A DNA stretch of 64,000 nt from Actinomycetota bacterium (GTDB lineage Bacteria > Actinomycetota > Aquicultoria > Subteraquimicrobiales > UBA9087). Position 1 is the stretch's first letter; every line of letters starts with the position of its first letter. Positions 2,669 to 34,963 of this stretch are shown here, piece after piece. Where the stretch lies: NCBI GenBank assembly GCA_030019215.1, contig JASEEZ010000007.1, forward strand, positions 2,521 to 66,520, given 5' to 3'. The notes under the pieces were generated by a model. That model was given only the letters and a program-made list of their open reading frames with translations. It was not told where the DNA came from and did no database searches. A program made the translations under genes and the position numbers.

Positions 2669-5368
2669 ATGGCGCAGGTCAATGTTACTATCGATGGAAG
2701 ACAGATAAAGACGGAGTCCGAGAAGACCGTTCTTGAGGTTGCCAAGGAAAACGGCATCTACATTCCCACTCTCTGTCACGATCCCAGGCTCAAGCCGTAT
2801 GGGGCCTGTCGATTGTGCCTGGTCGAAGTCGAGGGAGCCAAGGAACCGCTTCTGGCCTGCGCCACCCAGGTGGCCGATGGGATGGTGATCGCCACCGACA
2901 CGGTGACCCTCCACGAGATCAGAAAAACCATCGTCGAGCTTTTGCTCTCCAATCACCCTCTCGATTGCCTGGTCTGCGAGAGCACCGGTCAGTGCGAGCT
3001 TCAAGATATAGCCTACAACCTGGGTATAGAGGAGATCCGCTTCGAGGGCGAGAGGCACACCTACACGATCGAGGATTTCAATCCCCTCATCGAACGTGAT
3101 CCGAACAAGTGCATCCTCTGTGGGCGCTGTGTGCGTATCTGCCAGGAGGTTCAACAGGATTTTGTCTACGACTTCGCCGAGCGCGGTTTTGAGACCATCG
3201 TCACCACGCCCTATGACCGCTCTCTCATCAAGACGCTGTGTGAATTTTGCGGTCAGTGTATTTCCACCTGTCCCACCGGGGCGCTGACCGAGAGATTGAG
3301 CAGATTCAAGGGGAGAGTCTGGGAGACGAAGAAGACCAAGACCATCTGTCCCTACTGCGGCTGCGGTTGCCAAATCGAACTCTACTCAAAGAATAGCGAG
3401 GTCGTCCGGGTTGGAACTGAGGTTAAGAGCGGGGTCAATAGCGGCAATCTCTGTGTCAAGGGGCGCTTCGGCTATGACTTCATTAATCATCCAGATAGGC
3501 TCACCGCTCCTCTGGTGAGGAAGGGCAGAAAGCTCAAGAAGGCGAGCTGGGAGGAGGCCCTTGATCTGGTTGCCTTGAAGCTTTCTGAGATCAAGAAAAA
3601 GCATGGGGCGGACTCCATTGCCTTCCTGTCCTCGGCTAAGTGCACAAACGAGGAAAATTACTTGATGCAAAAATTTGCAAGGGCGGTGATTGGCACAAAC
3701 AACATCGATCATTGTGCCCGGTTGTGACACGCCCCCACGGTGGCGGGGCTTTCCGCCGCGTTTGGAAGTGGAGCGATGACCAACACCATTGCCGACATAG
3801 CTCAGGCCAAGGCCATTCTGGTGATGGGCTCGAATACCACGGAGGCCCATCCCATTGTCGCCCTCTCTATCAAGCAGGCCGTCTCCGAGAACGGTGCAAA
3901 ACTGATCGTGATAGATCCCAGGAGGATAAGACTGGTCGACTACGCCCATCTGTGGTTGAGCCAGAAAGCGGGCACGGATGTGGCCGTCTTGAATGGTCTC
4001 ATGAATGTAATCCTCACCGAAGGGCTGGAAGACAAGCAGTTCATTGCCGGCCGAACTGAGGGATTCGGCGAACTCAAGAATGTTCTTGCTAAATACACCC
4101 CCGAATACGTCGAGGAGATATCAGGCATCCCCGCCGATTTACTGAGGGAGGCGGCACGCATCTTCGCTCGGTCCGAGAGGGGCTCCCTTATCTATGCCAT
4201 GGGCATCACCCAGCATACCACCGGCACCGACAACGTCCTTTCAATCGCCAATCTGGCGATGATGACCGGAAACATCGGCAAACCGGGTACGGGGGTGAAT
4301 CCCTTAAGAGGACAGAACAATGTCCAGGGCGCCTGTGATATGGGGGCGCTACCCGGATGCGTCAGCGGTTACCAGAATGTCTGCGATCAGAGGACCATAA
4401 CGAAGTGCAAAGACCTCTGGGGGGCCAAGCTTCCAGAGAAACCCGGCTTGAGTGTGGTCGAGATGTTCGAGGCCGCCCTCAGGGGTGAAGTGAAGGCGAT
4501 GCACATAATGGGTGAGAATCCGATGCTTTCCGATCCCGATCTCGGCCACGTTGAGAAAGCCTTAAGGAAGCTGGATTTTTTGGTTGTCCAGGACATCTTC
4601 TTGACGGAGACAGCCGAGTTCGCCGATGTTGTCCTTCCCGGGGTCACCTTCGCTGAGAGGGATGGCACCTTCACCAATACGGAGCGGCGGGTGCAGAGGG
4701 TTAGAAAGGCCATAGAGCCCGTGGGTGATTCCAGGCCGGATTGGGGGATAATCTGCGAGTTATCTAGGCGAATAGGATATAAGATGGACTACTCCTCCGT
4801 GGGGGAGATAACGGATGAGATAGCTTCATTTACCCCCACCTATGCGGGAATCACCTTTGAACGTGTGAGCAGAGAAGGAGTCCAGTGGCCTTGCCCGAAC
4901 CCCGACCATCCGGGTACTCCCATTCTGCACGCGGAGAAGTTCACGAGAGGTCTGGGTAAGTTTCATCCTGTTGAACACAAACCCCCGGCTGAGGAACCGG
5001 ATGAGGAGTATCCTCTCATTCTGACCACGGGCCGGTATCTCTTCCAGTATCACACGGGCACAATGAGTCGTCACTCGAGGGGTCTTGAGGAGATGTGCCA
5101 CGAGGCCCGGGTCGAGATCAACCCGGCCGATGCGGACAAGCTAAAGGTGAAAGAGGGAGATTGGGTTAAGCTTATCACCAGACGCGGGAAGATCAAAGTT
5201 AAGGCTTGCGTCACTGAGCGTGCTCCCAAGGGCACTGTCTTTATGCCCTTCCACTTCAAGGAATCGCCGGCGAACGTGCTCACCAATCCCGCCCTAGATC
5301 CCGTCTCCAAGATCCCGGAATTAAAGGTTTGTGCGGTGAGAGTGGAAAAAGCCGGGAGTCGTCAGTAA
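2669..5368 (+). CDS. fdhA: Formate dehydrogenase alpha subunit (NuoG-like Fe-S N-terminus plus Mo/W-bis-PGD domain), a selenoprotein with TGA at 3725-3727 read as Sec (residue 353)
   Basis: ORFs 2669..3727 and 3740..5368 are in the same frame. The junction reads [27 protein letters not shown], the conserved Sec/Cys active-site context. selA, selB and tRNA-Sec are present in the window. Confidence 0.85.
3728..3768 (+). promoter_or_regulatory. Candidate bacterial SECIS hairpin immediately 3' of the Sec TGA
   Basis: The sequence CACGCCCCCACGGTGGCGGGGCTTTCCGCCGCG can form GCCCC/GGGGC or GGCGG/CCGCC stems just after the UGA. I did not compute a fold. Confidence 0.5.
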
Positions 5369-5592
5369 AATCTCTAAATCCAAAATCCGAATTTCTAAAT
5401 CCTAATCCTTCGACTTCGCTCAGGATTACCCTGAGTTTACCGAATGGGTAAACAAATCCGAAACCCAAAACTCTAATTTTCCAACTTTGTTTTGAATTTT
5501 GGTTTTGGGGTTTTGCATTTCGTTTACCCCGTACAAAAATCGAAGATTTTCTACGGGGTTTAGAATTTGGTGCTTAGGGTTTTGAAATTCTT
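5369..5592. repeat. Degenerate heptamer array forming a long imperfect palindrome
   Basis: In-register 7-mers on the left (ctaaatc caaaatc cgaattt ctaaatc ctaatcc) and right (ttttgaa ttttggt tttgggg ttttgca tttcgtt). Left arm gggtaaacaaatccgaaaccc pairs with right arm ggggttttgcatttcgtttaccc. Confidence 0.8.
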
Positions 5593-5819
5593 CCTTCTTA
5601 ATTACCCCCTGACTCCCGGTTGCCCACTCCGACTTCCTAGTGTTCGAACCACCAGAAAGGTTTGACGGTTAAACCCAAGGCATTTCCTTCATTGCCCAGA
5701 CCGACTTTGACTCTGTCGATAATTTCGTTTTTTTGTTCGTTTACCACTTTGCATGGCGGTCTCCTTTTCGAGACGAGCTTATTCCTTTACCGCAATCAAA
5801 TCACAAGTGGATGAAATTT

Positions 5820-9890: not shown

Positions 9891-10059
9891 TTTCCCTCCA
9901 ATCAGTTGGGAGTTTGTTAGTTGGGAGTCGGGAGTTACTAAAATTAAGAATTTAGAATGAAAATGTAGGATGGTTTAGGGTTTTAAAACCATTTTTAGTT
10001 TTTCATTCTCCACCCTTCACTTACCCATCTGCTATCAGCCATCGGCTATCTGCCACCAG
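9891..10059. repeat. Degenerate heptamer array / imperfect palindrome between hypD and hypE
   Basis: In-register 7-mers: agttggg agtttgt tagttgg gagtcgg on the left and atctgct atcagcc atcggct atctgcc accagct on the right. Centre is gggttttaaaacc. Confidence 0.75.
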
Positions 10060-11383: not shown

Positions 11384-14300
11384 TTAGAATGGACAGTAGG
11401 GCTCGGGACATCCCCCAGCGTATTCCGAATCGGCGCTCACGTATTCTAGAGTCTCGCCCCTCTCCTTGCCCATGACCGATCCGATGTAGAGTACCTGCTC
11501 TTTTTTGCTGCCGTACCTGTAGACCGTGATTCCCTTGCATCCCAGCTCGTGGGCGAGGAGGTAAGCTTCTCTGACGTCTTCCACGGTGGCGTCGGAGGGG
11601 AAGTTGATGGTCTTGGAGACGGCGTTGTCGGTATGTTTCTGGAAGGCGGCCTGCGTTCTCACATGCCACTGAGGGGAGATCTCAAAGGCGGTTACAAATA
11701 CCCTTCGCATATCCTCCGGAATCTCCTTCAAACCCTCAAGGGGACCTTTCTTTGCCACCTCCATCATCAACTCCGGACTGTATAAATCTCGTTCCTTTGC
11801 CGCCTTTTCAAATAAGGGGTTTACCTCCAATAACCTTGTGCCCTCCATGACATTTCGGACGAAAGAGATGGCAAAGAGGGGTTCGATGCCACTGGAGCAA
11901 CCAGCTATGAGGCTTATTGTGCCCGTGGGGGCGATCGTGGTTAGGGTAGCATTTCGGAGCCTTAAACCGCCGGGTTTATCGTAAATGCTCCCTTTGAAGT
12001 TGGGGAAGAAGCCTCGCTTCTCCGCCAGCTTTACGGAAGCCTCTCTTGCCTTTTCCAAAATCAATTTCATCACCTTTTCGGCGATGCTTAATCCCTCTTT
12101 GGAATCGTAGGGTATGCCCAATTCGATGAGGAAGTCGGCAAAGCCCATAACGCCCAGTCCTATTTTTCTATTTCCTTTGGTCATTTCCTCGATTTCGGGG
12201 AGGGGAAATTTATTGGCATCGATGACGTTGTCCAAGAAGTGCACGGCTATTTCCACGGTCCTTTCCAGCCTCTCCCAATCCACTTGGTGATCCTTGACCA
12301 TCTTTGAGAGGTTGATAGATCCAAGATTGCAACTTTCCCCAGGTAAAAGGGGCTGTTCTCCGCAAGGGTTAGTGCTTTCAATTAGACCCAAGCGAGGTGT
12401 TGGATTGCATCTGTTTATTTCGTCTATGAAGACCATACCGGGGTCGCCCGTGCGCCAGGCCATCGTGGTTATGAGGTCGAAGACGTTTCTGGCCTTGAGT
12501 TTTTTGACCTCTTTCCCAGTGCGCGGGTTTACCAGGGGGTATTCCCTGTCGTGCTTGACAGCGTCCATGAATTCGTCGGTTACGGCGACGGAGAGATTGA
12601 AATTGGTCAGGAAATCCTCCCTGGTTTTGGCCGTTATGAACTCCAGGATGTCGGGATGGTCCACTCTTAGGATGCCCATATTGGCACCGCGTCTCCGGCC
12701 ACCCTGTTTAATGACGTCGGTGGCCACGTCGAAGACGCGCATGAAGGAGACCGGCCCGGAGGCGATGCCCTTAGTCGATCTGACGATATCTCCCTTCGGT
12801 CTCAACTTTGAAAAATCAAATCCCGTACCCCCACCGCTATTATGGGAGATAAAACCGTTTGCTATGTAGGCATGCTTATTGGGAATAGTAAGATCCAAAA
12901 CTTCCCGTCTTCCACTGGGCTTGATTTTCTTCACTTTAGTAAAGAAGAGGTCATTATCGATTAAATTTATAAAAAATGGCGGAATAGGTACCCCTTCCTT
13001 TAATGTTTTTGCTATTACTGAGCGACTTAGCTGTCTCGGCTTTCTATGTCTGTAAAGTATGTCGCGAAGAAAGGGATTAATTCTGCGCTTCTGCATCGGT
13101 GAAAGTGTTTTATACCATTCTCTCAAAGGCCTATGTTGATGGGGGATGATCTCACCTCGAACGAAAATAGATTCTGGATCGATTTTTGCTAACCTCTCTC
13201 TTTTCTTTTTGTCCAAGAACCCCACATTTTTTTGGAAAAGTTTGAAACCCGACTTACTGCATATTGATACTTGATAGATATCCTTTAATGATGAGCAATT
13301 TTTGCTAAATGCTCTTTTGTAGTGAGTTCTGCGTGTCGGAATGCCTAAATAAAGCAAGATTGCTTGGAGCTCCTTTGCTAATTTCTCGGAAGCCGTACTC
13401 AATGTAATGTGACCGTTTTTACGGATGCAGCCGTCTGCGGTGAAAAGTCCACGCAAAAATCCATAAATTGCTCCCACATTGCCCCTTGAAATAATGCTGG
13501 GAATTCGTGCTTCAACTGAAGATGCTTTTTTTATCCTTAGAAAGTCGAACCATTCTTTGATTTGGATGCTCATGACGGTTACTTCCCATGTATTTCTTTT
13601 TGGGTCATCGCAGATGGTCACCGTGCTTTGGCTGCCGAAAAGTATACTTGAAAGCTCCTTAATTCTATCTAAAAGTTCAGGGGCTTTCTTGCTCACAGTA
13701 AATCTAATTCCATCTCGGTGATTGGAGCCATCTCCGATATAGAGACCAATTAGCTCTCCTAGCTCTGCGCTTAACTTGGTTGGCAAAGTGTATTCCCTTG
13801 CTTTAAAGCTGGTCTTATTCCTCCCTCGTTTAGGCTTGAATGGAAAAAGCGGCAATGATACCGAGTTGCCATTCCATATATTAGCTTTTAGAATAAGCCA
13901 GTCTCCTTCTTTGAGTTCGCCAATTTTACGCCAAATATATTTGCCTTCTTCGTCCACCACCATGAGTTTGTGTCTATTTGTTCCAACGACGGTGTAACCA
14001 TGGTCTGTAATCACCTCAAATACTGATTGTTCTCCATTGTGATGAACAGCACTAACTGCAAATTCCCCATCGTTGGTCATTATTGTTGAACCCATCTTAA
14101 CCTGATCCAATCTAGTTAAACCTCCAGAGGTCATCACCAGAGTTTCAGGTACCAGGCATTGGTGAATTAGACCCATCTGCTTGACCGCTTCAAAGATGCT
14201 CTTTAAAGAATCTTCGATCGGGAGCACGAAACAGGCGCTGAGCTGCCCCAGATCCGTTCCGGCGTTCATCAGGGTGGGGGAGTTTGGGAGAAATTCGAGA

Positions 14301-14824
14301 TTGGCCATGAGCCGGTAGAATTCCTCCTCGGTTTTTTGAACATCCGCTTTTTTATCGTAGATGGAGTCGATGGCGGCGATGGCCCTGGCGACGCGGCGGA
14401 ACATCTGGGTGGGGGTCTCGACGACATTCCCGTGTTCGTCCTTGATGAGGTACCTCTTTTCCAGCACTCTGGAGGCATTAACGGTCAACTTGAGTTCATC
14501 CTCCACACCAAAGAATCTCTTGGCGGCTCTTATTTCCGCTCTCTTTTGGCGGTAGAGGATGAAGGCCTTGGCCGCTTTGGCGTAGCCTCTTTTTATGAGG
14601 ACTTCCTCCACCAAGTCCTGGACGTTTTCCACACCGGGAATCCGCCCGGCATATTCTTCCTCGAGGAGGGAGACCACTTCTTTGGCCAGTTCACCGGCAA
14701 TGCTTTTGTCCTTCTCCTCGACGGCCAGGATCGCTTTGTGAATGGCATTGGCGATTTTCCCCTGTTCGAAGGGGACGATCCTTCCATCCCTTTTTCTGAT
14801 CTCAGAGATGGCTGAAGAGGCCAT
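11384..14824 (-). CDS. nrdJ: Class II (adenosylcobalamin-type) ribonucleotide reductase carrying one intein
   Basis: N-terminal ATP-cone-like region, extein junction KQMGLIHQ|[15 protein letters not shown]-terminal Cys pair ([10 protein letters not shown]). Confidence 0.85.
12839..14158 (-). mobile_element. Intein (440 aa, residues 223-662 of NrdJ) with a LAGLIDADG homing-endonuclease domain
   Basis: Starts at Cys (codon 14158-14156, CLVPETLV). Ends FISHN (Asn codon 12841-12839), followed by Ser at +1. LAGLIDADG-like blocks [10 protein letters not shown] and [11 protein letters not shown]. The insert looks more AT-rich than the exteins. Confidence 0.85.
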
Positions 14825-15405
14825 TTTTCTCTCCTTAAAGTAAATCTTCCTAGATATTACTATAATTTATCTAGAGCTTTAAAGCATCCTTTTTCGAACT
14901 AAAGTTCAGGAGGAGTTTTGCTGATCCTAAGTGGAAAGGTGTACAAGTTTGCAGGAATACCGCAAGCGCGCCCAGGATAAAACGGAGGAGGAATGCTTTT
15001 TCGTGGGCGCTAATTACTGCGAGGTCATGGCGACCAGGGCTACGTGGTAGATTTCACGGCGAAATTGGCTATCACCGCTTGACCGAGAGATATTCCGCCA
15101 TCGTTGGCGGGTACTTTTTTGTGTGTCAGGACGTCAAAACCGGCTTCTCTGAGTTTCCTCATCAGTCTGGTCAGGAGATAGGTATTTTGGAAGACCCCAC
15201 CACTTAAGGCCACCCGGTTGAGTCCCTCTTCCCCCCCAATCTTTCGCAGATTTCGGCCGAGAAGTCCACCACGCTGTTGTGAAACTTCGCCGAGATGACC
15301 GAAGGTGAGGTGCCTTTCTCCAGATCTTCAACCACCTCCCTAATGATTGGCTCTGTGTTGATGACCAGGCAAGATTGAGCGTTTGGCACTTCGGGGCTTA
15401 ATCTT

Positions 15406-15440
15406 CCTGTCCCCTGAACCCTGAACCCTGTACCCTGGAT
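15406..15440. repeat. Heptamer tract inside hypF (does not break the reading frame)
   Basis: cctgtcc cctgaac cctgaac cctgtac cctggat; it encodes IQGTGFRVQGTG. Confidence 0.8.
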
Positions 15441-16783
15441 TTTAAAGGGGTAACTCTCTTCGACGCCTTCGTCGGCTATCATCTCGAGCTCGACGGCGGC
15501 CTGCCCCTCGTAATCGATTACGTCCCTTACTCCCAGAAGTGCGGAGACCGCATCGAAAAGCCTCCCGCAGCTTGACGTGATCGGCGAGTTCAAATTTTTA
15601 TCGAGTTGATTTCTCATGATGTTGACCTCATCCTCTTTCAACGATCTGACGAAATCTATTTTTAGCCTTTCGTGATCCCCACCAAAGAGGGAGTAAAGGT
15701 AACTGAAGGCCATTCTGTATGGTCTCTTTATCGCGGCTTCCCCGCCGGGCATTGGAAAATACCTCAGATGCGCGGCCCGTCTAAAATCCATCCAGTCGGC
15801 AATTAAAATTTCTCCTCCCCAGATGGTGTCATCACTACCGTATCCCGTCCCATCGTAGGAGAGCCCAATGACCCTTCCCTCGACGTCATTTTCCGCGGTG
15901 CAACTGGCGATGTGGGCGTGATGGTGTTGAATCCCGATGAGGGGGATATTGTCCAATGATTTGGCAAATTTAGTGGAGAGATATTCGGGGTGAAGGTCGT
16001 GGGCGACTATCTTTGGTTCGATCCTGAACAGTTTCTTGTAAAGACCCAAGGTGGTCTCGAAGTGCTCAAGAGTCTCCAGGTTCTCCATGTCCCCGATGTG
16101 CTGGCTGACGAAGGCGTAAATCCCCTTTGTCAGGCAGAAGGTGTTCTTGAGTTCCGGCCCGACGGCCAGTATTTCTTGGGCTTCAAAGGGCAACCGGATG
16201 GGGAAGGGAGCGAAACTTCTGGCCCGGCGAATCTGTGCCATCTCTTTGCCGATGAGGCGGACAACGGAGTCGTCGTAGCGGGAGTAGATTTCTCTATTGT
16301 GCATGAGGAAATAGTCGGCGATGTGGCCCAATCTTTGCAGAGCCTCCTCATTTTCCATGGCGATCGGTTCCTCACTCATGTTTCCACTGGTCATTACGAG
16401 GGCCATCTTTGATTCTCGGAGGAGAATGTAGTGAAGGGGGGTGTAGGGGAGCATCACCCCTAGATATCTGTTGTTCGGGGTCACCTCCGAGGATATCATT
16501 GACTCTGGCTTCTTGAGGAGCAGGACGACCGGTCTCTGGGGGCTTTTGAGCACCCGTTCTTCCTCCGGAGAAACGAAGCAGTGTCTCTTGATCTCGTCGA
16601 TGTCGTGAATCATTATGGCCAATGGCTTGCCGGGGCGCCTTTTTCTCTTCCTCAGCTCGGTCACCGCCTGATCATTCTCCGCGTCGCAGGCGAGGTGAAA
16701 TCCCCCCAGTCCCTTGATGGCCACTATTCCCCCTTTCTTCAGCAGTTTGATGGTCTCCTGAATGGGATCCTTACACTCGGTTT

Positions 16784-16831
16784 CCTGACCCCTGACCCCT
16801 GACCCCTGACCCCTGACCCCTGACCCCTGAC
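16784..16831. repeat. Near-perfect heptamer tandem repeat (CCTGACC x6 plus a 6-nt partial unit) inside hypF at the frame break
   Basis: Counted directly from the sequence. It encodes VRGQGSGVRGQGSGVR in the upstream frame. Confidence 0.9.
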
Positions 16832-17435
16832 TAGCTCCAGAGATGGCCCGCATTCCGGGCAAGCGTTGGGTTGGGCGTGAAACCTGCGGTTGGCGGGGTC
16901 GTCGTATTCCGTCTGACATTTTGGACACATCTTGAACGCCCTCATCGTCGTCTTCGGGCGATCGTAGGGGATGTCCTCGATGATGGTGAAGCGGGGGCCG
17001 CAGTTCGTGCAGTTGATGAAGGGATAGCGGTACCGTCTATCGGTGGGATCGAAGAGTTCCCGCAGGCACTCATCGCAGATGGAGATGTCGGGCGAGATGA
17101 GAAGGAATTGTTCTTCCTCCTCCGCGCTGTGCTTGATGACAAAGGAGGAGTAGCCCACCAGAGGGAGACTCTTTGTCTCGATGCTTTCTATCTTGGCTAG
17201 GGGTGGCGGTTCGCTCTCGATGTCTTCGAGAAAGGCCTCGATGTCTTTCTCCTCACCCTCTATCTCGATGACCACGCCCTTGGTGGAGTTGAGCACCCAC
17301 CCGGCCAAGTTGTGGTGGTGAGCGAGCTGATAAATGAAGGGCCTGAAACCTACCCCCTGGACTACCCCTTTGATTACTAGCTGGAGTCTTTCGGCCATCT
17401 TGACTCCCCTTAGAGGCAGAGGCGTTGAATTAATG

Positions 17436-17624
17436 CTATTTCTGGGCCAGTATCACCTTGTGTTCCAGTAGCTTGATCTCCTTTACCTCAGCCTCTACGA
17501 ATTTTTGCTCTCCAAAGAGGTCCACCAGGAGAAGCTTGCCTTTCTCGGGTTTTATTGTAATCACGTTATCCATAAAATCTTCGAGCTTACCCTCTTTTTC
17601 AATGTAGACCTTTGCCTCACACAT
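17436..17624 (-). CDS. cooT: CooT-family nickel-binding protein
   Basis: The internal ATG at 17624 gives MCEAKVYIEKEG..., the Cys2 N-terminus typical of CooT, about 62 aa. Confidence 0.6.
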   Translation of the reverse strand: MCEAKVYIEKEGKLEDFMDNVITIKPEKGKLLLVDLFGEQKFVEAEVKEIKLLEHKVILAQK

Positions 17625-18054
17625 CCTTTTTGCCCTCCTCTGGTAAACCAAGCCTTTTTCTTATCAGCTCTATAGTCTCTTCCATGAGATGGGGGAGTGG
17701 AATCTGGGTTACGCCGATCAAATCGATGTGGGGATGAGAGAGGGGAAGGAGAATTTTTTGAGCTGGAGAGGTCGCTATGGCCTCGGCCATGACCGGTGTC
17801 AGCTCCCCCATCATCGAGTTGGGAATCACCGCTGATATTGGTCCGACGATGATGTCGGCGCTTTTCACGGAGAGCCTCACCGCGTTTTCACCGCTGGCTC
17901 CTCGATTTGCGCCAGCCTTCATCATATTATTTGTGGCTATGGCGTTGGTGCCCAGAACCACGACCTCGATATCCCCTGGGAGGCTTTCTCTCAGGCGGCT
18001 GACTATTTGGTGCCCGATGCTCCCGCCCATCCCATCTATTACCACTATGGTCAT
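17617..18054 (-). CDS. DUF3842-like protein
   Basis: MTIVVIDGMGGSIGHQIV... N-terminus, 145 aa. The family call is from memory. Confidence 0.5.
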   Translation of the reverse strand: MTIVVIDGMGGSIGHQIVSRLRESLPGDIEVVVLGTNAIATNNMMKAGANRGASGENAVRLSVKSADIIVGPISAVIPNSMMGELTPVMAEAIATSPAQKILLPLSHPHIDLIGVTQIPLPHLMEETIELIRKRLGLPEEGKKDV

Positions 18055-18245
18055 AACATTCTCCCGATTCCGTTATTAGGAATTAGTTATTCGAAATTAG
18101 TTGACAGTTCACAGATGACAGTTGTCAGCTAGCTTAGAGCCAAGAGCTCAGAGCTTAGAGAAAAAGCTTTTAGCTCTACCCTCTCCGCTCCCTGCTCCCT
18201 GCTCTCTGTCAACTGTGAACTGGTTCCTGGTAGCTGGCAACTGAT
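18055..18245. repeat. Exemplar phase-locked degenerate heptamer array (about 25 consecutive in-register 7-mers) with palindromic halves
   Basis: ttattag gaattag ttattcg aaattag ttgacag ttcacag atgacag ttgtcag ctagctt agagcca agagctc agagctt agagaaa aagcttt tagctct accctct ccgctcc ctgctcc ctgctct ctgtcaa ctgtgaa ctggttc ctggtag ctggcaa ctgattt. Confidence 0.9.
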
Positions 18246-18575
18246 TTACTTAAGCCAGGGAGAGAGTTCCTCAATCACCTTTTTCTTCGGCAAGGCTCCA
18301 ACCAGCCTTTTCTGTTCCTCTCCGTCCTTGAAGAGAATCAGGGTGGGGATGCTCAAGATGTTGTGCTTCACGGCGATCTCTTGATTATCATCCACGTTCA
18401 ACTTGGCTATCTTGATTTTCCCTTCATATTCCTCTGCCAGTTCATCGAGAATGGGTGTGACCATCCGACACGGCGCGCACCAAGCTGCCCAGAAATCGAC
18501 CAACACAGATACTTTCGAGTCTAGAACCTCCTCTTTGAAATTGGTCGCCGAAAGCTGAACAATTTTTTCGCTCAT
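18246..18575 (-). CDS. trxA: Thioredoxin (active site WCAPC)
   Basis: FWAAWCAPCRM motif, 109 aa. Confidence 0.9.
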   Translation of the reverse strand: MSEKIVQLSATNFKEEVLDSKVSVLVDFWAAWCAPCRMVTPILDELAEEYEGKIKIAKLNVDDNQEIAVKHNILSIPTLILFKDGEEQKRLVGALPKKKVIEELSPWLK

Positions 18576-18620
18576 CGATTCACCCCTTTCCCGGAGATAA
18601 TGATGGTCTTGAGGCTGTTC

Positions 18621-19550
18621 TCATTTGAGATGTCCTTCGATATATTTCTGTGCCGAGATGGCCGCTGTTGCCCCTTCTCCGACGGCGACGCTTATTTGTT
18701 TGAGGGGGTTGCATCTCACATCGCCCGCGGCAAAGATGCCAGGAATGGAAGTCATCATGTTTTCGTCGGTCACGATGTAGCCCTCTCTGTCCAGCTTCAA
18801 GAGGTTCCCAAGAAAAGTCGTGTTGGGTTCGGTGCCGATGTAGACGAATATCCCATCGGTCTTAATTTCCCTCTCTTCCCCGCTCTTTTTATTGCGAACG
18901 ATCGCGCCTTCCACCCTCGATTCTCCCAAAATTCTGAGGATTTGTGAATCCCAGACGAAGCCCACCTTTTTGTTGTCAAAGACCCTCTCCTGCAGGATTT
19001 TTGCCGCCCTCAGTTCATCTCGGCGGTGCACGACGAGAATGCTCCTCGCAAATTTGGTTAGAAACAAAACCTCTTCCATGGCGGCATCCCCTCCGCCGAT
19101 CACTAAAAGCTTCTTCCCTTTGAAGAGCGCCCCGTCACAGGTGGCACAGTAGGAAACGCCCCTTCCTTGGAGCTCCCTTTCTCCGGGGACATTTAATTTC
19201 TTGGGACGAGCTCCTGTGGCTATGATAACTGCTTTTGCTGGATACTTCGTGCCCTCGACGGCGATCTCCTTGGCCTCTCCTTTGATTTTGATGGAGGTTG
19301 CCATAGAGGGAGCGGATATTTCCAGCCCGAAGAACCTGGCTTGCCGCTCTATCCTTTCCATAAGCTCCGGGCCGGATATGCCATCCGGGAAACCAGGGTA
19401 ATTTTCAACCAATTCTGTTGTGGCGGCTTGCCCTCCCAGAACTTCCCCCTCAAGGAGCAGGGTTTTTAATCGAGCTCTGGCGGCATAGAGGCCGGCAGTG
19501 AGACCCGCCGGTCCGCCGCCGACGATTATTATGTCGTTAATTCTCTCCAA
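18621..19550 (-). CDS. trxB: Thioredoxin-disulfide reductase
   Basis: GGGPAG, CATCDG and a second dinucleotide motif GGGDAAMEE. Confidence 0.9.
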   Translation of the reverse strand: MERINDIIIVGGGPAGLTAGLYAARARLKTLLLEGEVLGGQAATTELVENYPGFPDGISGPELMERIERQARFFGLEISAPSMATSIKIKGEAKEIAVEGTKYPAKAVIIATGARPKKLNVPGERELQGRGVSYCATCDGALFKGKKLLVIGGGDAAMEEVLFLTKFARSILVVHRRDELRAAKILQERVFDNKKVGFVWDSQILRILGESRVEGAIVRNKKSGEEREIKTDGIFVYIGTEPNTTFLGNLLKLDREGYIVTDENMMTSIPGIFAAGDVRCNPLKQISVAVGEGATAAISAQKYIEGHLK

Positions 19551-19649
19551 GATGCTTACCTCGCGCCTCGATTCTCTCCGGCGCCTGTGGCGTTCTTAAA
19601 TTTGAGCGATACTATTATAACCTTTTCCTGCCCCTTGCCGGGAGATTTT

Positions 19650-20045
19650 TCAAAAGGTGGCGCTGGCGCTGGCCGAAGCCGAGAGGTAGGGTTCCAAGGA
19701 TTCAAAGCGATGGGCGAGGATGGTTTTCTTGGGTGGAACATCTATCCAGACAGTGATGGTGTGGTTTTTTATTTGGAAGTTGGTCAATACGGCACCTCTT
19801 TGCTCGGCAAGTTCTCTGGCCGTTGTCTGGGCCGCCTCTTTGGATAGCACGGAGGCTTTGTAGGAAGAGGCGGCCCCATCGGCGACTGCTTGAGCGATCT
19901 CCGGCGCCCCCCAGCGGGCGAGAGCTATCACCCCAACGTCGTTCGCAAGAACGATGATGATGAGGAGAAACAGAGTTACCTTTAAGACCGTGCCCAGAAT
20001 ATTCAATGTAATAACACCCCCTATCTTGTTTTGAAATATCGCCAA
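19650..20045 (-). CDS. Hypothetical protein with one N-terminal transmembrane helix
   Basis: 131-aa ORF overlapping the stop of the upstream gene. Confidence 0.45.
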   Translation of the reverse strand: MAIFQNKIGGVITLNILGTVLKVTLFLLIIIVLANDVGVIALARWGAPEIAQAVADGAASSYKASVLSKEAAQTTARELAEQRGAVLTNFQIKNHTITVWIDVPPKKTILAHRFESLEPYLSASASASATF

Positions 20046-22030
20046 CCAAGGATGACGCAGGTTATCAACATCAGGACGACGACGATAGAAAGGGCTACTC
20101 TGTTAAAGTAGGTGCTTTTGACTGTTATCATCGATTCCGCCACTTTCCTTTCGCTGCACTTGATCGTCACCTTAATGAGGGAAGAACCCGCTTTTTTTGC
20201 GGTCACGGGGAAGGTGAATACGTTTTCCTCGGGTGAGAGGGTTACGTTCTTTGTGTCACCGGAGGGGAAGAAAAAATCCTCTCCTTCTAGGGCGATGGAG
20301 ATGCTTATCGGATAGCCCGTGGCGTTGTTTATGGTTATGGGAACTTTCCCCCTTTGGCCAGTCAATGTGATTACCTGACTTCGGGGCGTGGTTATTTTGG
20401 CCAATTCGAAATCGATATTTCTTTCGATGTCCGCGGCGAAACTCAACCCCAAGTTTATGAGCTTGGGATCTTTTTCGGTTCCCAGCCAGTCGCTGCTCTG
20501 GGCGATCAGTAAATCCTGCAGGAATCTTTCTTGCAGGGGGTGATCGGGGGAGGCGATTTCGGAGAAGAGCTCAAAGCCAGCTTGGGCGCGTTCTAACTCT
20601 TTCAGATATTCTGTTTCCAGGTAGCCTCCTTCCAGCTCCGTTTCCGCGAGAGTTAGGGGCTTGGTTGGAGGGGCGATTAAGTCGGCGGCCTCTCCAAGGG
20701 TGATCGTTTTTACCCAGGGTATTTGCTCGAGTTTTGCGTACAAGGCTTGCAGTAGTTCCAGATTGGGGTCCCAGGATACATCGTCCGGGGACATGACCGC
20801 GATTTTTTGTTCACCTGCCCGGGTGAGATAGATCTCGGTGAGGGCTCCCAGCAGTCTCTGGCTGGTGGCTTCGGCATCCTGATCCTCAGTCAAAATTTGT
20901 GTGAGAAAATCATCGGCGAAGAAGACCGTCAAGCGGTTGTTTTCGGCATCCTGAACTCGATGGGGCATGTAGATGTCCCCCTCCGTTTCGGGGACGGTCA
21001 GGAAGATGTTTCCTTTCAGTATCGTGTATTTGACCTGGTTCTGGGTGAGATAGGAGAGGGCTTTCGAATTTAAAGTGAGGTTAGGCGGGTAAAGACCCGC
21101 CGGCTCAGGGAGGTTAAAGATGTTAGCGACGACTTCCTTCCCTTTTTTGATTTGAACCAGTCCATCTCGGTCCCACCCTTGGTTGGCGAGGGTGGCGAGG
21201 GAGGGGTAGGCGTAGGGGGCCGGGATTAGTTCAATTTGGCCGTTCTTTACCGTTTTCTCAAATCTTTTTAAGAGCTCAGTTGCATCTTGGGCTTGCCTGG
21301 ACTCCTCCGGTATTTTTTTAACCTTTCCCCCCACCAAAATCTCATAGCCGTCGCTCACATCCTGGATCTGCTGAAGGAGAAGCGGGGTGAAATTCATATT
21401 TACCCGAATGTTGGGGTGTTGGCTGAGGGCGATGATGTGCTGAAAGTAGGGCTCCGGGTTCTGGGGATCTAGACTGCAGTGATCTTGAATATCTTGATCT
21501 AGGAATATGCGCTGTGGATTGAAGTGCGCTCTGTCGTGAAGGTTCCAGGCGATTGCCATCAGTAAAGGGGATGATATTTTTGGGCTCGTCACGCACAGGG
21601 CCGATTTTTGCTCCAGAATGGTTTGTCCTTCTTGGGTTACAGTTGCTAGGACTTGGTAGGCGCCGTCCTCGAGATCAGGGATTTCCCTTTTGATTTTGAA
21701 CTCTGTTTTCCCCGCTGGAAGTGAGGAACGGGACCATGTCTGTCTGAGGAGAGGCTTGCTTTCTTGCTCAGAGGAGGGTTGGGTTTGATTTGGGAGACTA
21801 AGTCGGCCATCTATAGACAATGTTGCCCTAATGTTCTTCATGGATTCGGGCGAGTCGTTATTTAAGGTAAGGGTAATGGTGAACTCTTCCCCGCTCCCGT
21901 AAAAGGGCTTGTCAAAGGAGAGGCGCAGAGAGAGGGGGACCTGAGCAGAGCAAACAATCGAGCCAAGGAGGGCGAAGGCCACCAAGGTTAATATGAGCAA
22001 AGAGAAGATGGGGATATGTTTCGAGCTCAC
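20021..22030 (-). CDS. Large exported, C-terminally anchored protein; the central region is possibly GH57-like
   Basis: Signal-like N-terminus, C-terminal TM (VALSIVVVLMLITCVILGW), and an NFTPLLLQQIQ motif reminiscent of GH57 enzymes. The family assignment is weak. Confidence 0.5.
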   Translation of the reverse strand: MSSKHIPIFSLLILTLVAFALLGSIVCSAQVPLSLRLSFDKPFYGSGEEFTITLTLNNDSPESMKNIRATLSIDGRLSLPNQTQPSSEQESKPLLRQTWSRSSLPAGKTEFKIKREIPDLEDGAYQVLATVTQEGQTILEQKSALCVTSPKISSPLLMAIAWNLHDRAHFNPQRIFLDQDIQDHCSLDPQNPEPYFQHIIALSQHPNIRVNMNFTPLLLQQIQDVSDGYEILVGGKVKKIPEESRQAQDATELLKRFEKTVKNGQIELIPAPYAYPSLATLANQGWDRDGLVQIKKGKEVVANIFNLPEPAGLYPPNLTLNSKALSYLTQNQVKYTILKGNIFLTVPETEGDIYMPHRVQDAENNRLTVFFADDFLTQILTEDQDAEATSQRLLGALTEIYLTRAGEQKIAVMSPDDVSWDPNLELLQALYAKLEQIPWVKTITLGEAADLIAPPTKPLTLAETELEGGYLETEYLKELERAQAGFELFSEIASPDHPLQERFLQDLLIAQSSDWLGTEKDPKLINLGLSFAADIERNIDFELAKITTPRSQVITLTGQRGKVPITINNATGYPISISIALEGEDFFFPSGDTKNVTLSPEENVFTFPVTAKKAGSSLIKVTIKCSERKVAESMITVKSTYFNRVALSIVVVLMLITCVILGWRYFKTR

Positions 22031-29069: not shown

Positions 29070-29271
29070 CCCTTCTCTCCTGGTCGCAAATCGATTAAAA
29101 GATTCTTCAGCTTACCTTGCAATCCTTTTATTTAATCGAATTTCTTTGATTCAAGGATAATTTATTTAGAGTAGAAAGTCGAGAGTGGCAAGCAGTGTGA
29201 AATGTGTTGCTGGTGGAATTGAAGGAGGGTTTGTAGTAAGCTTATTCCAATCTGTGGGGACCATTCTCGGG

Positions 29272-30726
29272 ATGGCGACACCCGATTTTCAGGGAGGGGA
29301 TATCTTGTCCGGCAAAAAGGAGTATCTGCGCCAGCTTTCCGCGGTCGATGAGATCCTCCAGTTGGAGGAGATTCGAAGTTTGATTGGTACTCATCCCCGC
29401 CAGGTTGTGGTGGACGCCGTCCGCACCGTTCTAGAGGAGCTGAGGCGAACCATTCTATCCTCAAAGGATTCCGCTGAGCTGGCTGATCTGGAGCTTGAAC
29501 CTAAAGACCTGGTTCCTTTGATCATTGATTTGGTTCGAGAAGTGATGCACCCTCATTTGAAGAGGGTTATCAATGCCACGGGGGTGGTCATTCACACCAA
29601 CCTTGGTCGGTCGATCCTGGCCCCCGAGGCGGTTGATGCTCTTGTGACTGTAGCTGAAGGTTACTCAAATTTGGAGTTCGATTTGAAGTTGGGTGAGAGG
29701 GGTTCACGCCATGATCATGTTGAGGACTTGCTTTGCACTCTGACGGGTGCAGAGGCAGCGGCGGTAGTCAATAACAACGCCGGTGCTGTTCTTCTGGCCC
29801 TGGCCACGCTGGCCTCAGGCAAAGAGGTGGTGGTCTCGAGAGGAGAGCTAGTGGAAATCGGTGGTTCCTTCAGGATCCCCGACGTGATGCGCCAGAGCGG
29901 AGCGATCCTGAGGGAGGTGGGTACGACCAACAAAACCTATCTCAGGGATTATCGAGGAGCCATAGGGGAAGAGACCGCTCTTCTTCTCAAGGTTCACACG
30001 AGCAACTTCAGGGTGGTTGGATTCGCGGCTGAGGTCAGTCTGGAGGAGCTGGTAGTTCTGGGTGGGGAGTACAACGTGCCCGTCATGAACGACCTGGGTA
30101 GTGGTGTTTTCGTTGATCTCTCTCAATATGGACTCTCTCATGAGCCTACCGTTCAGGAGGCCCTCAAGGCTGGGGCTGACGTGGTGACCTTCAGTGGCGA
30201 TAAACTTCTGGGAGCTCCCCAAGCCGGGATAATCTTGGGAAAAAGAGAGTTCGTGGAAAAGATAAAGAAGCACCCCCTGGCCCGTGCCCTAAGAGTGGAC
30301 AAGCTCACCTTGGCTGGCCTGGAGGCCACTCTCAGGCTCTATCTGGACCCGGCCCTGGCGATCGAGCGTGTTCCCACGCTGGAAATGATACTGGCTCCCC
30401 TTGCCAATCTTGAGAAAAGAGCTCATCGGCTCGGTGAGGAGCTGAAAAAGAAGGTTGGAAAAACCTTCGATGTGAAGGTCGAGAAGGAGATATCACGGGT
30501 TGGGGGAGGGGCTCTGCCTCTGGAGGAACTTCCTACTTATGTGGTTGGCTTGACCTCCGCGGAGTTTTCCGCCGTGGAATTGGCGGGCAAACTGAGATTG
30601 TCGGAGCCGCCCATTGTAGCTCGATTAAAAGAGGACAAGGTGTTGCTTGATATGCGAACCGTTCGAGATGAAGAAATCCCCGGAATAACCTCCGCCTTTG
30701 AGGGAATTGCCCAGCCACGAAAATGA
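29272..30726 (+). CDS. selA: L-seryl-tRNA(Sec) selenium transferase
   Basis: LRQLSAVDEIL N-terminus and the PLP-lysine context FSGDKLLGAPQAGII. The start is taken at ATG 29272. Confidence 0.9.
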   Translation: MATPDFQGGDILSGKKEYLRQLSAVDEILQLEEIRSLIGTHPRQVVVDAVRTVLEELRRTILSSKDSAELADLELEPKDLVPLIIDLVREVMHPHLKRVINATGVVIHTNLGRSILAPEAVDALVTVAEGYSNLEFDLKLGERGSRHDHVEDLLCTLTGAEAAAVVNNNAGAVLLALATLASGKEVVVSRGELVEIGGSFRIPDVMRQSGAILREVGTTNKTYLRDYRGAIGEETALLLKVHTSNFRVVGFAAEVSLEELVVLGGEYNVPVMNDLGSGVFVDLSQYGLSHEPTVQEALKAGADVVTFSGDKLLGAPQAGIILGKREFVEKIKKHPLARALRVDKLTLAGLEATLRLYLDPALAIERVPTLEMILAPLANLEKRAHRLGEELKKKVGKTFDVKVEKEISRVGGGALPLEELPTYVVGLTSAEFSAVELAGKLRLSEPPIVARLKEDKVLLDMRTVRDEEIPGITSAFEGIAQPRK

Positions 30727-30739
30727 TCCTGATGGGGTG

Positions 30740-32647
30740 ATGTTTTTGAAGCATGTCATCGTCGGCACCGCTGGTCACATCGATCACGGAAAGACCACTT
30801 TGATCAAGGCCCTCACGGGAGTCGACACCGATCGTTTGAAGGAGGAGAAAAAGCGGGGCATCTCTATCGAATTGGGCTTCGCCGAGTTTAGGCTTCCCAG
30901 CGGGCAGATCGCTGGAGTGGTCGATGTCCCGGGCCACGAACGCTTTGTCAAGAATATGCTGGCCGGAGCCACGGGGATTGATCTATTGCTCCTGGTTGTG
31001 GCCGCCGACGATGGAGTAATGCCTCAAACGAAAGAACACTTGGCCATAGCCGATCTCCTGGGCGTGAAGAGAGCCGTGGTGGCTTTGACCAAGGCTGATC
31101 TGGTCGAGGAGGAGTGGCTGAAGATCGTCGAGGATGATGTGCGATCGGTACTTAAGGGAACTCTTTTTGAGGGAGCCTCGATAGTCCCCGTCTCCCCGCT
31201 CGCGGGATTCGGACTGGAGAAGTTGGTGGCCGAGATAGACGAAGCCGTTCGGGAAGTTCTCCCGAAGGATACGGATGCCCCCTACCGTCTCCCCATCGAC
31301 CGCGTCTTTATCTTAAAGGGCATCGGAACGGTGGTCACTGGAACTCTCTGGTCGGGGGAGATTCGTCCTGAGATGCAGGTTAGGCTTCTCCCCAGGGACC
31401 TCTCCGCCAGGGTGAGGAGCGTTCAAGTTCATGGACACCGCGTAGAGAAAGCATCGGCTGGGCAGCGGGTGGCTCTCAACCTGGTCGGCGTCGGTTCGGG
31501 CGAGATAGAGAGGGGTGATGTTGTTCTTCCCCCACGGTATCTATCGCCGAGCCGGATGTTTGATGCCAAACTCCAACTCTTAACCGATGCGTCAAAACCG
31601 CTGAAGAGTGGAGCGAGGGTCCGCGTTCACCATGGAACCCAGGAAGTTATGGGGAGGATCATTTTGGTCGATGCCCAGGAGATTCCTCCAGGGGAGAGCA
31701 CCTACGTCCAAATCCGTCTGGAGAAGCCGATAGTCCCCAAATTCAATGATAGGTTCATCATCAGAAGCTACTCCCCAATCCACACCATAGGGGGGGGGAG
31801 AGTTCTAGACAGCCATCCCTTTAAGCACAGGCGTTTCTCCCCAGAGACCGTGGAGAGGATGAGGATATTGGAGAAGGGGGATCCGGTGGAGATGGTCGAG
31901 CTGATTTTCGCCGAGGCCAAGCTCCATCCCCTGGATGAGAAAGCTATCGCCGCTCGCTCTGGGTTGTCGGAAGAGGTGGTTGAGGAGGCTCTCGCCACGC
32001 TAGTTCGGGATAGGGCAATCTGCTCTCTAAAGGGAGGGGGGCTCTTCGTTTCCGCGACGGGCTACGATAAGATAAAGTCGGATGTCGTTGCTTTCCTTGA
32101 GAAATATCATGTGGAGAGTCCCTTGAGCACCGGGGCCAAGAAGGAGATGGTCAGGGCCAAAGTTCTCCCGAGCCTTTCGTCTGGGCTGGCCGATATTATC
32201 TTCGCCGATCTGCTTGCCTCGGGCGCTATTTCCCAGAAAGGGGATGCTCTCCGTCATCCTCTGGTTGCGACCGAACCAAGTCCGGCGCATAGGGAGATGT
32301 GTGATAAAATAAAAAAGCTGCTGTTCGAGCAAAGATTTGCCCCTCCGCTTTTGAGTGAGGTGAGCGACCTTTTGGGGATCACTCAGGAGGAAGCCAGGGA
32401 GTATTTGAGGATGCTCTTCTCCCAAGGGGAAGTCGTGAGAGTAAGACACGATCTCTATTTTCACGGTGCCATTTTTGAGGAGATCAAAGATAAGGTGGTG
32501 AACTTCCTGGAGAAGAGGGGAAAAATAGGTCCGGGGGAGTTTAAGGAATTGCTGGGGATAAGTCGCAAGTACGCTTTACCCCTTCTGGAATATTTAGATG
32601 CCCGGCGCATCACGCGAAGGGTTGGAAACGATAGAGTGCTGCGGTAG
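30740..32647 (+). CDS. selB: Selenocysteine-specific elongation factor
   Basis: [25 protein letters not shown]-like TKAD and C-terminal winged-helix repeats. The start is taken at ATG 30740. Confidence 0.9.
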
Positions 32648-32865
32648 CGAAAGTGAAAAAGCAGATGGCTGATGGCAGATAGCAAACGGCAGATAGCTGG
32701 TTGCAGATAGTTTGAGCTATTAGCCATCGAGCGAACGTTAGTGAGCGAGCCATAAGCCATACGCCATCGAGTGAGCGAGAGCGAACGAGCTACGAACGAG
32801 CTATATGCTATCGAGGCCGCGAGGCCAAGCCATTAGCTAGTGGCTGGAAGCTGTCAACTGAATGT
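32648..32865. repeat. Degenerate heptamer array between selB and tRNA-Sec
   Basis: cagatgg ctgatgg cagatag caaacgg cagatag ctggttg cagatag ... catcgag cgaacgt tagtgag cgagcca taagcca tacgcca tcgagtg ... ctagtgg ctggaag ctgtcaa. Confidence 0.85.
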
Positions 32866-32962
32866 GGGGGTGGATCGGTCCTGGTGGATCGCCTGGTCTT
32901 CAAAACCACGGTGGGGTGCGAAGAGCATCCTGGGTGGGTTCGATTCCCACACACTCCCGCCA
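32866..32962 (+). tRNA. selC: tRNA-Sec (anticodon UCA)
   Basis: Hand fold: 6-bp D stem cggtcc/ggatcg with a 4-nt loop; anticodon loop cuUCAaa; 6-bp variable stem gggtgc/gcatcc; T arm gtggg-ttcgatt-cccac; long acceptor stem; G73; encoded CCA. One mismatch each in the acceptor and anticodon stems. Confidence 0.8.
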
Positions 32963-32996
32963 AATTATTCTTTCTTATCTTCGCCCAACCACCGTT

Positions 32997-34884: not shown

Positions 34885-34963
34885 CCCTCGCGCTCGCTAG
34901 TGAATTTATCACAACTTATCTTGAGGGGCAATACAATATATTTTATGGATGATAGGGCGGTGC

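Follow-up and report, generated by a model that had tools for sequence, protein, structure and literature searches.

Drifting heptanucleotide arrays, one of them a fold-back array between trxA and a DUF3842 gene, in a genome stretch of a Candidatus Aquicultoria-like actinobacterium

We analysed a stretch of 64,000 nucleotides from an Actinomycetota genome (contig JASEEZ010000007.1 of assembly GCA_030019215.1; in the following the window) and describe the spacer at positions 18055–18245, which with 191 nt is the entire non-coding gap between the minus-strand genes trxA and DUF3842. The spacer is a "slippery" hairpin made of two inverted arrays of heptanucleotides. We consider it probable that it is an array of the heptanucleotide simple sequence repeat (SSR) class, i.e. 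of the short tandemly repeated repetitive (STRR) or long SSR type, with two inverted blocks, that it originated by slippage, that its fold-back was generated at the DNA level, that it would form a long hairpin in the transcript, and that the same kind of repeat can act as a frame switch inside genes. All counts and scans of the window refer to this one 64-kb stretch of one genome.

The spacer between trxA and the DUF3842 gene

When the spacer is compared with itself at a shift of seven nucleotides, the identity is 0.59, compared with 0.25 ± 0.033 in shuffled sequences (z 10.6). At lags of 7, 14, 21, 28, 35, and 42 the identity is 0.59, 0.52, 0.44, 0.35, 0.28, and 0.25, that is, the similarity between units falls smoothly with their distance and reaches the background after about six units, whereas lags not divisible by seven all give values of 0.16–0.32. 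Because of this decay along the multiples of seven with all other lags at the baseline, we conclude that the units stand in one register and that their consensus drifts gradually. From position 18078 on, neighboring 7-mers in the unit table have mostly at least four of seven bases in common and in a few cases three; breaks with one common base are found at the boundary of blocks A and B (18092 to 18099) and at the hairpin apex (18155 to 18162). The program Tandem Repeats Finder (TRF) reports four blocks of period 7 or 14 within the spacer, and the array contains a perfect run of two CCCTGCT units. Thus, the preliminary description of this DNA, which had written the spacer as about 25 in-register 7-mers with a stepwise drift, agrees with the measured periodicity. 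It had also stated that a missing genome-wide lag-7 excess over shuffled controls would speak against it; within the window such an excess was found.

The preliminary description further proposed that the right half of the spacer is the reverse complement of the left half at the level of the units. In fact the word pairs TTGACAG/CTGTCAA, TTCACAG/CTGTGAA, and AGAGCT/AGCTCT are exact in the spacer. An ungapped scan places the best centers of symmetry at 18160, 18163.5, 18167, and 18170.5 (z 7.8), and around each of them 53–67% of the positions are complementary over 60–85 ungapped pairs. As the centers are spaced by 3.5 nt, they correspond to shifts of the pairing register by 7 nt, so that at least four registers are available. 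The sense (minus-strand) RNA is predicted to fold into one long imperfect hairpin of ∼150 nt with a minimum free energy of −71.2 kcal/mol (z −4.3), and the plus strand folded as DNA yields a z of −4.8. These values are compatible with a long hairpin in the putative transcript. Among the non-Watson–Crick positions of the sense-strand stem there are 2–9 G·U and 4–7 A·C pairs, that is, no excess of G·U.

The spacer is delimited exactly by its neighbors, as the ATG of the DUF3842 gene is the reverse complement of 18052–18054 and the TAA of trxA the reverse complement of 18246–18248. The genes trxB, trxA, DUF3842, cooT, and hypF all lie on one strand. The ribosome-binding site of the DUF3842 gene (GGGAG) sits in the first ∼16 nt of the spacer, and this part is not periodic. 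Stop codons are present in all six reading frames of the spacer, a search of the region 17950–18350 against Rfam yielded no family at E ≤ 1, and blastn of the spacer against plasmids gave no match. In the whole window the Rfam gathering threshold was reached by a tRNA-Sec, a tRNA-Pro, and a molybdenum-cofactor riboswitch only.

The nearest relatives of the DUF3842 protein are found in metagenome-assembled genomes (MAGs) of Actinomycetota, with 80% identity in Candidatus Oleimmundimicrobium americanum (class Candidatus Aquicultoria) and 74% identity in G04_MAG_00047. The host is a Candidatus Aquicultoria-like actinobacterium, in accordance with the earlier remark that the gene content is not cyanobacterial. 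Relatives with more than 80% identity were absent from the genome, metagenome, and protein collections searched, and the best matches in a search for HypF homologues reached at most 62% identity. When the exact proteins of DUF3842, trxA, HypD, and the deacetylase were looked up, the sole matching sequencing run was SRR23186780, with no variant strain.

Further arrays in the window

Pooled over the intergenic DNA of the window, the identity at lags 7, 14, and 21 is 0.287, 0.282, and 0.282, compared with ∼0.26 at the neighboring lags, and coding DNA yields 0.241 at lag 7. A comparison of intergenic with coding DNA had been proposed in the preliminary description, and in the window it comes out in favor of intergenic periodicity. 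Among the 26 spacers of at least 90 nt, five have a lag-7 z above 3. Beyond the main array the excess is seen at 9891–10059 (z 6.5), 39375–39626 (z 5.2), 5369–5819 (z 4.1), and 32648–32996 (z 3.3; z 4.1 at lag 14). These heptamer loci had been listed before as recurrences of the same architecture. Two further loci of that list, 52552–52749 and 57578–57768, have a period of eight nucleotides instead, and the shared architecture itself is realized only in part: on one strand or on both, seven of the nine array regions reach a fold z of −2.5 or below, which most spacers without an array do not, but 9891–10059 consists of direct arrays without fold-back (z −0.3 to −0.6). The sense strand folds better than the other strand in six of the nine regions, which is not significant. 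The short versions inside genes that had been mentioned were recovered by TRF at four loci (Table 1); the one at the start of moaC (36288–36342) comprises runs of 2.3 ATGTCGG units, with the start codon inside, and of 2.7 GGATGTC units.

All eight spacer arrays are situated in co-directional or convergent spacers and begin at the stop codon of the upstream gene, and the divergent (promoter) spacers, four or five in number, have none, which at these numbers is a trend only. Several arrays (9891, 18055, 39626) end a few bases away from a start codon or a ribosome-binding site. Regular runs of three to four G are restricted to the array in hypF and to the octamer arrays. No heptamer word is common across the arrays or dominant in the non-coding DNA of the window, and the consensus shifts even inside single arrays. 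Similar words do not keep one orientation relative to transcription from array to array. The period is conserved, the unit sequence is not.

Some of the arrays are related to each other. A segment of 49 nt next to the tRNA-Sec gene (32689–32737) is 80% identical to a segment next to the tRNA-Pro gene (39551–39599), and an exact 21-nt repeat (CCATAAACCATTAGCTGATTT region) is common to 39447–39467 and 39602–39622, flanking tRNA-Pro. Judged from these two similarities, the sequences suggest a duplication or conversion between the arrays near both tRNA genes. The two octamer elements are paralogues of ∼190 nt which are 75% identical in an alignment and have the 5′ block AAAGCGCAAAGAGAAC in common as well as a conserved 3′ block; each of them has an octamer-array hairpin. 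The apex of this hairpin is inverted between both copies, with 52607–52647 being the reverse complement of 57606–57646 at 92.7%. Such an inversion would be expected if inverted arms recombine or if the template is switched between them.

Table 1. Arrays, their parts, and adjacent genes (positions refer to the window unless a contig of a relative is named)
Feature	Position	Strand	Remarks
Main heptamer array	18055–18245		∼25 periodic units; whole trxA–DUF3842 spacer; long imperfect fold-back
Block A, four nnATTAG-type units	18071–18098		TRF period 14 at 18072–18102; unit table; outside main stem
Left arm, 9 units, AGTTGAC-type drifting to TTAGAGC-type	18099–18161		TRF period 7 at 18099–18128 and 18131–18160; unit table; pairing
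Apex (aaaaagc) and right arm, 12 units, GCTCCCT-type drifting to CTGNNAA-type	18162–18245		TRF period 7 at 18187–18208; complements left arm
Heptamer fold-back array	5369–5592		Abuts stop of formate-dehydrogenase-like gene, between convergent genes; fold z −6.7 on plus strand; lag-7 z 4.1
Two unrelated direct heptamer/14-mer arrays	9891–10059		Fill hypD–hypE spacer; lag-7 z 6.5; fold z −0.3 to −0.6, no fold-back
Heptamer/14-mer arrays	32648–32865		selB stop to tRNA-Sec; TRF; lag-14 z 4.1
tRNA-Sec	32866–32962		Abuts array 32648–32865
Heptamer fold-back array	39375–39468		Deacetylase gene to tRNA-Pro; fold z −4.3
tRNA-Pro	39469–39546		Abutted by arrays 39375–39468 and 39547–39626
Heptamer fold-back array	39547–39626		tRNA-Pro to start of GGDEF gene; fold z −3.1
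Octamer (GGGGTCNA-type) fold-back element	52552–52749	+	Upstream of GNAT gene; TRF period 8; fold z −3.9
Octamer fold-back element, second copy	57578–57768	+	Upstream of 157-aa gene; lag-8 z 4.6; symmetry centers 4 nt apart
Perfect (CCTGACC)x6.9 array	16784–16831	−	Inside hypF; TRF 100% match
Short in-gene repeat versions	15412–15437, 16784–16831, 36288–36342, 62279–62297		TRF
trxB	18621–19550	−	Upstream neighbor of trxA
trxA (thioredoxin)	18246–18575	−	Pfam PF00085, E 5e-32; upstream of main array in transcription direction
DUF3842 gene	17617–18054	−	Pfam PF12953, E 1e-51; downstream of main array
cooT	17436–17651	−	Downstream of DUF3842 gene, followed by hypF
Heptamer arrays of relative L084	3145–3207, 7739–7802, 9483–9561		Metagenome contig
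Heptamer arrays of relative L086	18309–18424, 20176–20341		Metagenome contig

The array inside hypF

The perfect array in hypF splits this gene into two overlapping open reading frames (ORFs), 16739–17398 and 15204–16928, which divide the Pfam domains between them: the N-terminal ORF carries the acylphosphatase domain and the zinc fingers, the C-terminal ORF the YrdC and Kae1-like domains. Addition of one repeat unit would join them to a single ORF of 733 aa and removal of two units to a single ORF of 726 aa. In the restored frame the array encodes (RGQGSGV)n within the variable linker that separates the second zinc finger from YrdC, and the length of the restored linker matches that of the closest relative. 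Thus, hypF shows the arrangement of an SSR contingency locus, a unit that is not a multiple of three inside an ORF where the copy number sets the frame, and the earlier idea of slippage-prone contingency tracts finds support here. Judged from the sequence, hypF is a candidate for a phase-variable hydrogenase maturation gene or, alternatively, for a miscount of the repeat in the assembly. Annotators should therefore treat genes split by arrays, such as hypF, as possibly phase-variable or repeat-miscounted and not as plain pseudogenes.

Assembly support

Over 16802–18097, 18135–21575, and 34822–39590 the window is matched without any difference by Logan contigs of run SRR23186780. In this second assembly, 154 nt of the 191-nt main array and the complete array 39375–39468 are present with zero mismatches, so that the support which the preliminary description had called for is present in part. 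The short-read contigs break inside three arrays (positions 18097, 18135, and 39590), with no 31-mer being repeated there within the window. The breaks are compatible with polymorphism in the population, with further copies elsewhere in the genome, or with a loss of coverage at hairpins. They could also be taken as a sign that the arrays are assembly artefacts, and the central 37 nt of the main array, which have no second support, point in the same direction. Nevertheless, we regard an artefact as very improbable given the agreement between both assemblies over most of the main array; moreover, the arrays are imperfect and hence are not collapsed k-mer loops, and comparable arrays recur in relatives and in other phyla, in MAGs and metagenome contigs that are independent of this assembly.

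Relatives and other taxa

About 50 relatives have the genes in the same order; their gap between trxA and the DUF3842 gene has a median of ∼20 nt (range −8 to 105), compared with 191 nt here; two relatives (L090 and L092) have a spacer of 276 nt without periodicity. The gap between hypD and hypE is 18–106 nt long in relatives and 169 nt here. Because these gaps are short and without array in the relatives, the main array and the hypD–hypE array are lineage-specific additions to operon junctions that are compact otherwise. Heptamer arrays with drifting units do occur in the relatives L084 and L086 (68–70% identity), in other spacers, one of the L084 arrays being located between trxB and trxA, and none were found in the relatives L003, L004, and L083.

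Drifting heptamer arrays are also present in Chloroflexota loci, further loci that we noted being L133, L151, L043, and L067, and unrelated loci from Treponema carry heptamer arrays too. L067 is a fold-back of (GTAACGA)n and (TCGTTAC)n, and L133 has one heptamer unit in opposite orientations at a distance of 3.6 kb. When periods divisible by three are set aside, seven is the most frequent tandem period in 2.05 Mb of unrelated loci, with 28 regions compared with 1–9 regions for the periods 4, 5, 8, 10, and 11. At equal threshold the window contains eight arrays per 64 kb and these loci 51 per 2.05 Mb, which makes the window about five-fold denser. Of the heptamer arrays in other taxa, 3 of 24 fold at z ≤ −2.9, so that the window also stands out by the frequency of fold-back among its arrays.

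Comparison with known repeat systems

We assign the arrays to the known class of heptamer SSRs because the differences that we see from this class are differences of degree only. New are the host lineage, the heterogeneous units under a fixed period, the high proportion of fold-back arrays, and their placement at operon junctions and at the flanks of tRNA genes. The arrays share with the heptanucleotide long SSRs that 7-nt units follow each other head to tail beyond chance, mostly in non-coding DNA and at many loci; the earlier statement that they do not represent a simple microsatellite has to be corrected accordingly. Heptanucleotides are reported to be the most abundant class of long SSRs in most long-SSR-rich prokaryotic genomes, three Actinobacteria included (Mrazek, Guo & Shah 2007, as summarized in PMC4679880). 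The long SSRs resemble our arrays by their tandem 7-nt units, their mostly non-coding location, their sporadic distribution that includes Actinobacteria, and a proposed slippage in 7-nt steps (Mrazek 2007, as summarized in PMC4679880). As summarized there, the work differs in being a statistical survey in which neither fold-back nor a drifting consensus appears and in which the Candidatus Aquicultoria-like lineage is not sampled. Polymerase slippage has been proposed for heptamer SSRs generally (PMC4679880; PMC4692102).

Xanthomonas genomes contain ∼185 intergenic (GGGANTN)n arrays each, and 70–75 convergent inverted pairs among them have stem–loop potential (Rehm et al. 2015, PMC4692102). The GGGAATC arrays of Xanthomonas and the GGGGA(C/T)T arrays of Nostoc are intergenic heptamer arrays of 2–26 units, perfect or heterogeneous, as are the arrays described here; most of them are transcribed, and related species differ in the length of the arrays (PMC4692102). 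On the other hand, there is one G-rich, G-quadruplex-forming family per genome, and the positions are largely conserved between species (PMC4692102), whereas the arrays of the window have heterogeneous units, are mostly not prone to G-quadruplex formation, and are absent at the orthologous sites of the relatives. The main array has the form of a Xanthomonas-type inverted pair, i.e. of two close convergent heptamer arrays, without a quadruplex-forming unit of the GGGAATC type. Thus, the earlier remark that STRRs are not described as drifting palindromic arrays needs to be restricted, as inverted heptamer pairs capable of hairpin formation are already known with 70–75 cases per Xanthomonas genome (PMC4692102).

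The TAACTGA repeats of Beggiatoaceae, Cyanobacteria, and Bacteroidetes (MacGregor 2015, PMC4679880) are intergenic direct heptamers as well and are often located just upstream of start codons. They differ by a single conserved unit with 2–6 copies per set, and one indirect (inverted) set was found among 170 (PMC4679880).

The preliminary description had named the STRRs of heterocystous cyanobacteria as the closest class. This was the right neighborhood, but the arrays are not STRRs in the strict sense, having no dominant word and an actinobacterium as host. The cyanobacterial STRRs, which Mazel et al. are said to have described in 1990 as heptanucleotide repeats, reportedly have a few fixed unit sequences in heterocystous cyanobacteria, and Nostoc is one of their hosts. 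Both systems have tandem heptamers at many intergenic sites of one genome, whereas no fixed STRR unit dominates the arrays here. A likeness of our units to STRR1–3 or to TAACTGA was considered and rejected, as by our estimate it is within chance given 14 rotations and orientations and ∼12 unit families. The nearest STRR resemblance, CAACTGT here compared with CAACAGT, which we take to be the STRR3 unit, is within chance too.

To our knowledge hmw1A of Haemophilus influenzae is the only case in which experiments have dissected how a heptamer repeat works by way of an RNA hairpin and RNase III, and we know of no other locus where the function of a heptamer array is known from experiments. There the transcribed (ATCTTTC)n in the 5′ untranslated region forms a long hairpin which is cut by RNase III; hairpin, transcription, and RNase III are all required for changes of the repeat number, and the repeat number sets the expression (PMC12721329). 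At hmw1A one arm is the repeat and the other a non-repeat G-rich sequence, in the 5′ untranslated region of a single adhesin locus (PMC12721329), whereas here both arms are arrays, which are intercistronic or located beside tRNA genes.

Repetitive extragenic palindromic (REP) sequences and bacterial interspersed mosaic elements (BIMEs) of enterobacteria and pseudomonads are similar in being imperfect palindromes in intercistronic or 3′ regions of operons which form hairpins in the mRNA. They differ in having conserved units of 20–40 nt, mobilized by REP-associated tyrosine transposases (RAYTs), and no tandem period of 7 nt. No 20–40-nt palindromic unit in many copies, as in REP, BIME, or REPIN (REP doublets forming hairpins) elements, was found in the window; only two pairs of arrays are partly similar, and a second copy of the main array is absent. 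The distinction from classical REP elements that had been made before is hence valid, as is the one from CRISPR arrays, given a period of 7 nt and no repeats of 24–48 nt with unique spacers.

Origin and possible function

Judging from the pattern, we suggest that slipped-strand mispairing in steps of 7 or 14 nt would create and resize the arrays in dispensable DNA and that point mutations would then let distant units diverge, giving a fixed register together with a drifting consensus. The inverted arrangement would arise and persist by template switching or recombination between the arms at the DNA level, as in quasipalindrome correction. As the stem shows no excess of G·U and the apex is inverted between the octamer paralogues, the fold-back looks like a product of events at the DNA level, and selection on the RNA of one strand would not be required for it. 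The array is probably transcribed together with trxBA, DUF3842, cooT, and hypF, because these genes lie on one strand and because trxA and DUF3842 are only ∼20 nt apart in relatives; the transcript would then contain an imperfect intercistronic hairpin of ∼150 nt. By analogy to REP elements or to hmw1A this hairpin might serve as substrate of RNase III or as barrier for exonucleases and would uncouple the expression of trx from that of hyp, and a change of unit number or pairing register might bring about a heritable tuning. The same repeats inside genes would act as frameshift switches, as in hypF.

Several points weigh against this reading. Some arrays are partly dispersed copies, namely the segments near both tRNA genes with 80% identity and the octamer elements, so that slippage in place is not the whole story. 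The missing G·U bias means that there is no positive sign of selection for an RNA hairpin. The frameshift in hypF could be a miscount in the assembly, since the start of the Logan contig lies within the hypF array, which leaves the copy number unverified, and the central 37 nt of the main array (18098–18134) are without independent assembly support. As far as function is concerned, the arrays may be without any and be a pure mutational by-product.

Why heptamers dominate among bacterial long SSRs is a question that has been standing since 2007. A free unit sequence under a fixed period argues against a single sequence-specific binding protein and favors a cause in the replication or repair machinery, i.e. 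a cause at the level of the polymerase rather than of a binding motif. Going further, the 7-nt phase might stem from a molecular ruler that is independent of sequence, for example, the step of a polymerase of replication or repair which slips or switches template on hairpins; the arrays would then be self-propagating "slippery hairpins", and register and unit number would be heritable rheostats for the expression of cistrons relative to each other and for processing at the flanks of tRNA genes. We hold this extended proposal to be rather unlikely, but if it were true the genome would be a clean natural system for studying why long SSRs prefer heptamers. In any case, short-read assemblies of this lineage fall apart at the arrays, operon junctions that would be compact without them become longer, and genes such as hypF can look like pseudogenes. 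The hairpin arrays with several registers inside operons and beside tRNA genes are loci that can be tested.

Instead of growing in place, the arrays could go back to a miniature palindromic element, mobile or dispersed, which happens to carry heptamers and was inserted in copies into the spacers, similar to REP, REPIN, or miniature inverted-repeat transposable elements or to the small dispersed repeats of cyanobacteria. The main array indeed behaves like a ∼170-nt insertion relative to the ∼50 relatives, the similarities around tRNA-Sec and tRNA-Pro (the 80% identical segment and the exact 21-nt repeat) and the two ∼190-nt octamer elements would fit to such an element, and the contig breaks at 18097, 18135, and 39590 could mean that copies exist elsewhere in the genome. 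Yet neither the window nor 2 Mb of loci contain a second copy of the main array, and the arrays lack common termini, terminal inverted repeats, and target-site duplications; a candidate terminal motif, CCATTAGCTGATTT, is not enriched, with five matches compared with 5.5 expected. Furthermore, the unit vocabularies differ among the arrays, no transposase or RAYT-like domain is present in the ∼50 of 63 ORFs of the window that were scanned against Pfam, and similarity falls off smoothly with the distance between units, as expected if the arrays grew in place. A mobile element is therefore an unlikely source.

Quite improbable in our view are tandem sites for a sequence-specific DNA- or RNA-binding regulator, one of the roles that had been considered before. 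Such sites have been proposed for the TAACTGA repeats (PMC4679880) and for the heptamers upstream of recF and recO in Nostoc (bioRxiv 10.1101/2022.06.06.494920), and the proximity of the arrays 9891, 18055, and 39626 to start codons or ribosome-binding sites would suit a regulator. However, the arrays have no heptamer word in common, and even within one of them the consensus shifts, which makes one protein that reads them all unlikely; in addition, similar words have no consistent orientation relative to transcription, and the arrays are absent from relatives with the same operon. A factor-independent terminator or insulator between trxBA and the hyp genes, which had likewise been proposed for the hairpin, is improbable too, if marginally less so. 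The stem is long and stable (−71 kcal/mol, z −4.3), the array 5369–5592 is located between convergent genes, and for Actinomycetota a terminator role of hairpins that lack a U-tract has been proposed, although this is contested. On the contrary, consensus scans of 18055–18245 detected no stem followed by a T-run anywhere, so that a canonical intrinsic terminator is unsupported, and the hairpin is followed by a block of mixed A and T and not by a U-run. DUF3842, cooT, and hypF would moreover need their own promoter, and the same scans found no sigma-70-like promoter in the array; in relatives the genes are 0–40 nt apart, suggesting co-transcription. Thus, we keep the reading of the spacer as a heptanucleotide SSR array with two inverted blocks.

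Further features of the window

An in-frame TGA codon (3725–3727) interrupts a formate-dehydrogenase-like molybdopterin oxidoreductase (ORFs 2669–3727 and 3740–5368) in the motif CARL-U-HAPT, and the window also contains selA and selB (29185–32647) as well as tRNA-Sec (32866–32962). Because of this combination, a selenoprotein is the most likely reading of the sequence, rather than a split gene. Just downstream of tRNA-Sec a direct repeat of 217 nt (33070–33286 and 34638–34854, 98% identical) brackets a segment of ∼1.35 kb with an ORF of 352 aa that has no Pfam match; a Logan contig breaks in the second copy of the repeat. Possibly this is a small segment that was inserted or duplicated at the tRNA gene.

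Genes for SbcC-like and SbcD-like (metallophosphoesterase) proteins and for a HerA-type helicase are located at 58626–62242 and 62243–63838. SbcCD cleaves DNA hairpins, and one may speculate that this explains why the palindromes are imperfect rather than perfect. The gene of a class-II-like ribonucleotide reductase (11384–14824, minus strand) contains an intein with a LAGLIDADG homing endonuclease domain. At 50612–50773 there is a tandem duplication of 78 nt (2.1 copies, 88% identical) in the C-terminal part of the gene of an 872-aa Mrp/Nuo-type antiporter-like subunit. The molybdenum-cofactor riboswitch (Rfam RF01055, 40.4 bits) is found at 35095–35274, upstream of moaA–moaC.

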